3,405 nucleotides of DNA. Origin: Enterobacteria phage M. Shown here in pieces: positions 1,746 to 3,304 of the stretch (the stretch's first letter is position 1; each line of letters starts with the position of its first letter). Made by a program: the position numbers and the translations under genes. Where the stretch lies: the sequence record JX625144. One strand, given 5' to 3'. The notes under the pieces are model-generated. The model searched no databases, had not been told where the DNA came from, and saw only the letters and a list, made by a program, of their open reading frames with translations.

Positions 1746-3304
1746 CTCGGAAAAGAAGAGTAACAATAAGTACTAGTCAATTCCACGTTCAGCTCGACGA
1801 GCAGTGGGTCCTCCGAAGGATCTCCGAATCACTCGATTTGAGTGATTTTCGGAATAGCTATCTGGTAAAGTCTTTACTTTCCAAATATGCTGCGCCATCG
1901 AAGGAAAGTGCCCGGGCTCGCCAGAGGGCAGCTATCGCTAAACTCTTATGGACATCTCGTCGCAATCGCGACACAGAGTATCGTTTGCTTCGACGCGATA
2001 GTAAGCAGGATTTTATGTTCTTGCTCACACGCGAAGTTGCAAATCTACTCGGTGATGTCCCTGAGTTTGAAGGTTTATCATCTTTTAGTGGGGGTGCTTC
2101 GACACGACATCGTCGTGGTAAAAGTCAACCTCAAGAAAAGTTTGATGGATATGGCGATACGACTGCAAGCAACTTACCGTTAGCCCGAAAGAGTATCCTA
2201 GCCTCACCTGCTTGGAGCTGCAATTCCGCAGTATCCACTGGTGGGACTTTAGAACTCCGACTGGTTCCTGGTAATGTTGTTTTCACTGTACCTAAGTCTA
2301 ATGTTATAGATCGGGCTGCTGCTAAAGAGCCTGACCTGAACATGTACGTCCAGAAGTTTTATGGAGATCATATCCGTGGCCGGCTACGCCGGTTTGGTAT
2401 AGACCTCAATGACCAAGGACGTAATCGTGATCTTGCCCGCCAGGGTAGTATCACGGGAGACTTAGCGACTCTCGATCTTTCAAGTGCTAGTGACTCTATA
2501 ACAAGGATCCTTATGCTCGAGGTATTACCTCCTGCCTGGTTCGATGTTTTAGACCGTGCTCGCAGTAGATGGACTAATGTGAACGGCGTTTACCGCCAGC
2601 TACATATGTTCTCTACTATGGGTAACGGGTTCACTTTCGAACTTGAAAGTCTGTTATTCTTCGCTGTTACCAGAGTTACTCTGAAAATGCTAAATATTCA
2701 GGGTACTATCGGTATATACGGAGATGACATAATCTGTCCGACATCCGCTGCACGCGAGGTTGTAAGTAATCTCGAGTACATCGGGTTTAAGACAAATATC
2801 GATAAGTCGTTTATCGAAGGACATTTTCGGGAGTCGTGTGGCGGCCATTATTATAAAGGCCGTGACGTAACTCCCTTCTACATTCGCAGTCCCTTAAACA
2901 ACATCCAGAGAATAATCTGGCTGCTGAATAAGATTCGCGAGTGGTCCTCCGAAGGAACAACCATTGCCGTTGAGCTAGAGGAATTATATTTTGAAATATA
3001 TAATAAATTTAGCATTCTGCGTTCTCTTACTGGTTGCGGGGGACTCGATAGCATATCGAGTCTCGCAATACCTGGCGCCTTTGGTGGATACCTTCACCAA
3101 GTGACACGTAGAGTCGCAGTCAACGAAGATGGCGCGTATGTCCAAGCCCTCCTTAAAGGATCTCCGTCTGATACTCTCCGGTTCGTTTCTGTTGAAACAA
3201 GTCGTTATGAGATTAGACAGTGGTCCGATAAGGTAAGACCTGACATGTGTCGTTCCTTGTACAGTAATGGTCGTATGGTCTATTTCCTAAGGGAAATAGG
3301 CTAA
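1742..3304 (+). CDS. rep: RNA-dependent RNA polymerase (replicase beta subunit), 520 aa
   Basis: Longest ORF, 3'-proximal as in all leviviruses. ATG at 1742 with AGGA (1732-1735) 6 nt upstream; stop TAA at 3302-3304. Contains the catalytic motif [11 protein letters not shown] (YGDD encoded at 2717-2728) and an upstream D-x4-D-like region (DLSSASDS), as expected of levivirus replicases. Confidence 0.95.
2991..3104 (+). CDS. Candidate single-gene lysis protein, 37 aa, embedded in the +1 frame of the replicase gene; UUG start
   Basis: Translating frame 0 myself: TTG(2991) AAA TAT ATA ATA AAT TTA GCA TTC TGC GTT CTC TTA CTG GTT GCG GGG GAC TCG ATA GCA TAT CGA GTC TCG CAA TAC CTG GCG CCT TTG GTG GAT ACC TTC ACC AAG TGA(3102-3104) gives [43 protein letters not shown] (2977-2982) lies 8 nt upstream of the TTG. 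Residues about 4-22 ([19 protein letters not shown]) form a hydrophobic stretch long enough for one transmembrane helix, the hallmark of levivirus lysis proteins. No canonical lysis ORF exists at the coat/replicase junction, so a lysis gene must be elsewhere. It is too short to appear in the ORF track. Confidence 0.6.

Follow-up and report, generated by a model that had tools for sequence, protein, structure and literature searches.

Where in its genome does Enterobacteria phage M encode the protein that lyses its host, if the junction of coat and replicase genes holds no usable open reading frame (ORF) for this purpose? We addressed this question in sequence record JX625144, a stretch of 3,405 nucleotides (nt) that we call the window and number from its first letter. 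A preceding sequence-only reading of this DNA had nominated a 37-codon ORF hidden inside the replicase gene, at 2991-3104 in its +1 frame and with a UUG start, as a candidate single-gene lysis (Sgl) protein. We regard it as virtually certain that this ORF is lysM (also called sglM), the single-gene lysis gene of the IncM-specific phage M, which acts via the lipid II flippase MurJ. The gene, its target, and structures of its product have already been published (2012, 2017, and 2025), so that the assignment is correct but not new. What we add to the literature is evidence for purifying selection from one wild variant and an independent confirmation that the ORF is missing from the next relatives, both of which are minor.

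An embedded ORF matches the published lysis gene of phage M

At the coat/replicase junction, the sequence-only reading had seen nothing better than a non-hydrophobic ORF starting from ATG 1672. We find the same, but this ORF encodes 18 amino acids (MTLLSNWKAYTKYSPFYP) rather than the 19 that had been counted, and a length of 17 is given by Rumnieks & Tars 2012 (PMC3561173), who likewise found no candidate lysis gene there.

The lysM coding sequence lies on the plus strand of the window, from a UUG start at 2991-2993 to a UGA stop at 3102-3104, and its 37 codons are read in the +1 frame of the replicase gene, ca. 1250 nt into that gene according to the ORF table. Frame, start, and length in this table are those first proposed, and the nearest in-frame stop upstream (TAG at 2976-2978) leaves the stretch 2979-3104 open, just as had been described. 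The statement that the TTG at 2991 is the only canonical start codon needs a small correction: an in-frame TTG (3081) and GTG (3084) exist as well, close to the 3' end, but would give peptides of only 7 and 6 amino acids, respectively. The replicase gene (beta subunit of the RNA-dependent RNA polymerase; 1742-3304, plus strand) fully contains lysM. Its 520-amino-acid ORF is an exact match to AFU61981.1 / YP_007111575.1, "replicase beta subunit [Enterobacteria phage M]", and the relatives of this protein that our homologue search retrieved carry Pfam PF03431.

The product of lysM exactly matches the deposited "lysis protein [Enterobacteria phage M]" (AFU61982.1 / YP_007111576.1 / UniProt K7QK87), and it is the single member of its cluster at 90% protein identity. 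It is also identical to the peptide chains in two MurJ-complex structures, at 37 of 37 residues for 9ukv_B and at 36 of 36 (residues 2-37) for 9nu4_B; 9NU4 is cited in the literature as the Sgl-M-MurJ complex. Rumnieks & Tars 2012 (PMC3561173) describe a genome of 3405 nt with a lysis gene of 37 amino acids and a UUG start at nt 2991-3104, and three of their primers match the window without mismatch, including the primer for rapid amplification of cDNA 3' ends (3'-RACE) at its stated position of nt 3072-3091. The sequence-only reading had noted that phage M possesses a UUG-initiated lysis gene of 37 amino acids inside its replicase gene; this statement holds, and the comparison to the annotated gene that it called for has come out as an exact match, in the protein as well as in the published coordinates. 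More broadly, all four proteins of the window match deposited phage M proteins exactly, the remaining two being the maturation protein (AFU61979.1; gene at 90-1277) and the coat protein (AFU61980.1). The window is therefore the complete genome of phage M, a single-stranded RNA phage specific for IncM pili.

Initiation signals and peptide features

Upstream of the start codon, the Shine-Dalgarno-like (SD) motif AGAGGA is found at 2977-2982 on the plus strand, separated from the UUG by the proposed 8-nt spacer (2983-2990). This element has also been named as SD by Rumnieks & Tars 2012 (PMC3561173), who specify it as GAGG located 9 nt 5' of the UUG. With a mean probability of being unpaired, P(unpaired), of 0.51 in a 221-nt fold, the SD is half accessible. 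The UUG itself sits within the 8-nt loop of a weak AU-rich hairpin at 2983-3004 (plus strand; stem 2983-2989 / 2998-3004), which was predicted in all four fold contexts (36, 71, 121, and 221 nt) with a local folding free energy (dG) of -2.7 kcal/mol and a P(unpaired) of 0.99 for the start codon. This hairpin had already been described in the original study (PMC3561173).

The peptide shows the hydrophobic helix that the sequence-only reading had proposed. Its best Kyte-Doolittle average over a 19-residue window (KD19) is 2.02 for residues 4-22, compared with a usual threshold of 1.6 for membrane helices, and the maxima spread over residues 3-22. The proposed polar C-terminal tail, however, is an amphipathic helix judging from both the hydrophobic moment and a structure determined by cryo-electron microscopy (cryo-EM; see below). 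The hydrophobic moment is highest in 11-residue windows starting at residues 16-27 and peaks at ca. residues 18-33.

LysM lyses E. coli by inhibiting MurJ

Lysis by this ORF has been demonstrated directly. Rumnieks & Tars 2012 (PMC3561173) induced random complementary DNA (cDNA) clones of phage M and observed that a clone spanning 2098-3129 lysed the cells. They chose the ORF at 2991-3104 by its length, a helix predicted by TMHMM at >95%, the GAGG motif, and a start codon atop an AU-rich hairpin. When a fragment of ca. 150 nt with its own SD and UUG was induced next, E. coli lysed almost completely after around 45 min (PMC3561173); in the window, this lytic fragment corresponds to 2950-3104 on the plus strand, with the published cloning primers matching at 2950-2969 (plus strand) and 3083-3102 (minus strand). 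The proposal of a single-gene lysis protein is thereby borne out with the gene's own translation signals. Lysis of E. coli by LysM expression has since been reproduced independently (Kohga et al. 2025, PMC12506998).

The target of LysM is the lipid II flippase MurJ: later papers describing the 2017 work state that LysM inhibits flipping, that resistant MurJ mutants exist, and that the unrelated flippase Amj rescues the cells. Rescue from LysM by Amj is also documented by Kohga et al. 2025 (PMC12506998), who further showed that any one of the single substitutions N6A, L13A, L14A, D18A, I20A, or P30A prevents lysis with no drop in peptide accumulation and that truncations keeping 32 or fewer residues are inactive. 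Their cryo-EM structure at 3.09 Å (9UKV) has helix 1 of LysM buried in the membrane between the transmembrane helices TM2 and TM7 of MurJ, an acidic loop inserted in the MurJ groove, and the amphipathic helix 2 running along the membrane surface, with MurJ locked in an outward-facing state (PMC12506998). AlphaFold models of LysM were of low confidence according to the same authors (PMC12506998).

These elements can be placed on the plus strand of the window with limits that are approximate, because we derived them from hydropathy and did not take over the exact limits of the cryo-EM paper. Helix 1 would be encoded by codons 2-17 (2994-3041), i.e., the hydrophobic, membrane-embedded segment that packs between MurJ TM2 and TM7 and holds the essential residues N6, L13, and L14. 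Codons 18-37 (3042-3101), whose internal limits are inferred in the same approximate way, would comprise the acidic loop that enters the MurJ groove (with essential D18 and I20) followed by amphipathic helix 2 (with essential P30 and the required residues beyond position 32).

In the sequence of events that explains the data best, ribosomes initiate at the UUG in the loop of the weak AU-rich hairpin, 8 nt 3' of AGAGGA, and the resulting 37-residue LysM enters the inner membrane with its hydrophobic N-terminal helix. There, it docks onto MurJ at the crevice formed by TM2 and TM7, its acidic loop (D18) reaches into the cavity of MurJ, and helix 2 rests on the surface of the membrane. With MurJ wedged in its outward-facing state, lipid II is no longer flipped, peptidoglycan synthesis comes to a halt, and growing cells lyse and free the phage. 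The UUG start and the hairpin would presumably keep expression low and lysis delayed, and lysM is probably necessary for lysis in a real infection.

A wild variant preserves lysM

In 2012, phage M was the only IncM-specific RNA phage that had been isolated, and conservation of its lysis gene could therefore not be assessed (Rumnieks & Tars, PMC3561173). Phage-M-like genomes can now be found in environmental assemblies (ENA, JGI/IMG, and Logan; proteins P0003-P0007 and P0009-P0029), and clusters at 90% protein identity contain 5 further variants of the replicase, 16 of the coat protein, and 6 of the maturation protein. We compared phage M with one of the five environmental members of the replicase cluster, L033 (ENA ERZ781412 NODE_2196, 2613 nt), which differs by 258 substitutions over 2613 aligned nt (ca. 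90% identity) and encodes a replicase that is 95.6% identical in protein sequence.

In this variant, lysM is intact with unchanged UUG, SD, hairpin, and length, and the stop codon has changed from TGA to TAA. The protein carries three replacements (L12F, Q26R, and T34I), none of them at the six essential residues. Substitutions affect 4 of 114 positions in lysM and 160 of 1449 in the rest of the replicase gene (3.5% vs 11%; Fisher p = 0.010), i.e., they are about 3-fold fewer. This depletion is telling because the third codon position of the replicase gene is the second codon position of lysM, so that synonymous drift of the replicase should scramble LysM. Instead, only 3 of 38 replicase third positions are changed within lysM compared with 130 of 483 elsewhere (p = 0.0068). 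Two uninterrupted runs of identity at 2966-3023 and 3025-3066, the second and third longest in the replicase gene, together span the SD, the start codon, and codons 1-25. At this level of similarity, the ORF is kept; at ca. 50% replicase identity, we found it reduced to a broken remnant (see below).

As a separate observation, the longest run of identity in the replicase gene lies elsewhere, with 93 fully identical nt at 2081-2173 (P = 0.004 under random placement of the 164 differences). This run ends at AGCAA (2168-2172), for which Rumnieks & Tars (PMC3561173) proposed a long-distance pseudoknot like that of Qβ, its partner being UUGCU of the 3'-terminal U1 loop (3382-3386). The identity of 2081-2173 may reflect a constraint at the RNA level; the sequence of the wild variant ends at window position 3380, before the UUGCU of the U1 loop.

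Chance expectation and alternative explanations

How easily could such an ORF arise by chance? In 2000 synonymous-codon shuffles of the replicase gene that left the protein unchanged, an alternative-frame ORF of at least 30 amino acids with a KD19 of at least 2.0 appeared in 27.6% of cases, and the same kind of ORF plus an SD-like motif in 2.35%. These rates weigh against lysM as a genuine lysis gene, and so do several other points. The energy of the start-codon hairpin is unexceptional (z = -1.18); 7.4% of all 114-nt windows of the replicase gene are as invariant as lysM, and our conservation test is a single pairwise comparison between phage M and L033; no family in Pfam-A or PHROGs v4 matches LysM at E <= 1; and the ORF is not conserved in relatives at ca. 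50% replicase identity. Moreover, all functional data on LysM come from plasmid expression in E. coli, and no lysM knockout in the phage itself is reported in the papers that we consulted. The identification of MurJ as the target of LysM by Chamakura et al. in 2017 is taken here from the descriptions in three later papers.

The shuffle rate, the absence of the ORF at ca. 50% replicase identity, and the lack of a reported knockout in the phage feed the view that lysM is a chance open frame. On this view, cells lyse upon induction because a hydrophobic peptide made in excess is toxic in a non-specific way, and the true lysis function resides elsewhere. Sequence alone indeed speaks only weakly for a lysM gene, and the case therefore rests on the published experiments and on conservation in the wild variant. 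Non-specific toxicity fits poorly with six single alanine substitutions that abolish lysis at unchanged accumulation, with specific suppressor alleles of MurJ and rescue by an unrelated flippase, or with a defined MurJ complex that has been solved twice, and a chance frame would not be expected to keep its ORF, start, and stop in the wild variant with ca. 3-fold fewer substitutions. We thus consider this explanation very improbable.

If the lysis function resided elsewhere, one place to look would be a 98-codon ORF in the same +1 frame at 1887-2183, which the sequence-only reading had named as an alternative. It is the longest alternative-frame ORF of the replicase gene and has an ATG start and a KD19 of 1.65, but it comes without an SD-like motif and without a Pfam or PHROGs match, and ORFs of at least 98 codons occur in 9.5% of the synonymous shuffles. 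In the wild variant, a change from ATG to ACG removes its start, the stop codon is gone as well, and 22 of its 98 codons have changed, nearly all at replicase-synonymous sites, which argues that its frame is not under selection. The lytic clone starting at nt 2098 lacked most of this ORF and the fragment 2950-3104, which lyses on its own, lacks all of it (PMC3561173). With its reading frame disrupted in L033 and most or all of it absent from the lytic clones, the ORF at 1887-2183 is effectively refuted as the lysis gene, and we give it next to no credence. Alternatively, the maturation protein might lyse cells during infection, as A2 of Qβ does by acting on MurA, with LysM being merely accessory. 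Alloleviviruses provide a precedent, and we found no statement that the maturation gene of phage M was tested separately. However, several cDNA clones were induced in the original study and lysis was reported for the 2098-3129 clone only (PMC3561173), phage M groups with levivirus-type plasmid-specific phages that use separate small lysis genes, and LysM needs no other phage protein to lyse cells and is conserved in L033. A lytic maturation protein is therefore just as hard to credit as lysis by the ORF at 1887-2183, and lysM stands as the lysis gene of phage M.

Two further observations concern open frames elsewhere in the replicase gene. A 35-codon ORF at 3129-3236, a short distance 3' of lysM, with an ATG start in the +1 frame of lysM and a KD19 of 1.01, was rejected given that it contains a stop in the wild variant and lies in a highly variable region. 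In the 5' third of the replicase gene, the +1 frame stays free of stops for 84-128 codons in phage M (1887-2183) and also in two distant relatives, L034 (1812-2066) and L035 (2075-2461; coordinates of the respective sequences), which is most likely an effect of composition or codon usage and not a gene.

Distant relatives and the age of lysM

The next relatives, and the two closest ones other than M, are L034 and L035, which share ca. 50% replicase identity with phage M and 88% with each other. At the position of lysM, their +1 frames read MKYTTSFPFCT followed by two stop codons and MKYTISFLF followed by one, respectively, and thus end after 10-11 codons. These "MKYT" stubs stem from the conserved replicase motif (F/Y)EIYxKF. 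The stubs match a published statement on Beihai25, a phage described as being without the lysM ORF but with remnants of it, and they support a recent origin of lysM. The high shuffle rate of comparable ORFs given above agrees with published opinion, according to which lysis genes of this kind readily emerge de novo. If lysM is very young, phage M and its relatives would be a datable example of a MurJ inhibitor that was either born de novo or relocated.

L034 and L035 share an additional feature in an alternative frame, i.e., a conserved ORF of 108 codons with an ATG start and an SD-like motif that crosses the coat/replicase junction (L034 1383-1709 and L035 1619-1945). The N-terminal part of its product is basic, and the hydrophobic stretch after it, VLAFGACALALLILSGC, contains an LS dipeptide as well as a lipobox-like LSGC. 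These features make the ORF a candidate lysis gene, L-like or of the lipoprotein type, at the canonical position, where phage M has none.

Database coverage of these phages is uneven. Phage M is absent from the INPHARED-derived phage collection that we searched, with no match by megablast for the whole window or by tblastn for the LysM peptide, and tblastn with the replicase found only relatives of at most 48% identity in this collection (the best being PRRlime and PRR1, both at 48%). Since the phage M genome is available in GenBank/RefSeq, this lack of matches is a database gap and not novelty, and for single-stranded RNA phages in general, "no match" in this collection should not be read as novelty. 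Scanning IMG/VR and JGI metagenomes with replicase peptides gave nothing above ca. 43% identity, a 29-nt pattern from lysM was not found in IMG/VR as an exact match, and an Rfam search of the window retrieved no known RNA family.

Implications

LysM is a "protein antibiotic" of 37 residues that marks MurJ, an essential flippase, as druggable, and its gene is a textbook example of lysis genes born de novo inside another gene. The smaller novelties of our analysis, which do not alter the identity of the gene, can be put together as one proposition, i.e., that purifying selection acts measurably on lysM in wild phage-M-like populations, that lysM is very young, and that a hairpin and UUG start inside a translated gene may serve as a lysis timer; for these parts jointly, we see the arguments for and against as evenly balanced.

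Beyond phage M itself, a reading of raw sequence recovered a non-AUG, fully embedded gene of 37 codons at its exact coordinates, which makes this locus a positive control for such approaches. Thousands of levivirus genomes from metagenomes have no annotated Sgl gene, and candidates could be nominated in them by the combination of an SD, a start codon in the loop of a weak hairpin, and a hydrophobic helix. Our shuffle test shows that a substantial share of such sequence-only calls would be false positives if neither conservation nor experiment supported them.

Comparison with known systems

The ORF of the window does not differ in any respect from LysM / Sgl-M of phage M as deposited and structurally characterized (K7QK87; YP_007111576.1; 9UKV chain B and 9NU4 chain B), with identical sequence, coordinates, UUG start, SD, hairpin, and genome length of 3405 nt. 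It also has the general traits by which Sgl genes of the Leviviricetes are recognized, i.e., a small embedded or overlapping ORF that encodes at least one hydrophobic membrane helix, in this case 37 amino acids inside the replicase gene with a KD19 of 2.02.

Lysis proteins of the L type, such as MS2 L and the L-like Sgls of PRR1, C-1, Hgal1, and GA, resemble LysM in being short membrane-active peptides encoded by an overlapping levivirus gene. However, L-type genes straddle the coat/replicase junction and are coupled to translation of the coat gene, whereas phage M has no usable ORF at this site. In the L-like architecture, a basic domain at the N terminus precedes a hydrophobic one that carries a conserved LS dipeptide. 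LysM has neither the basic domain nor the LS dipeptide, and its hydrophobic helix begins at residue 3. Furthermore, L is reported to act by forming pores or by autolysis and not through inhibition of MurJ. From its genomic position and its lack of both hallmarks, LysM is not an MS2 L-like protein.

In terms of gene location, the closest parallel is the Caulobacter levivirus phiCb5, which has the only other classical lysis gene wholly inside the replicase gene in another frame (PMC3561173). The lysis protein of this distant phage is longer and has two helices (PMC3561173), and no sequence relation to LysM has been described.

In terms of mechanism, the closest parallel is Sgl-PP7 of Pseudomonas phage PP7, which also inhibits MurJ and does so in a similar way. 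Sgl-PP7 belongs to a different phage lineage and makes distinct contacts with MurJ, and its authors infer convergent evolution and not homology. Like LysM, phiX174 E (acting on MraY) and Qβ A2 (acting on MurA) are single proteins that lyse cells by blocking one step of lipid II supply and not by degrading peptidoglycan, though they have other targets and unrelated folds, and A2 is a maturation protein and not the product of a dedicated small gene. LysM thus belongs to the Sgl "protein antibiotics" together with Qβ A2, phiX174 E, and Sgl-PP7.

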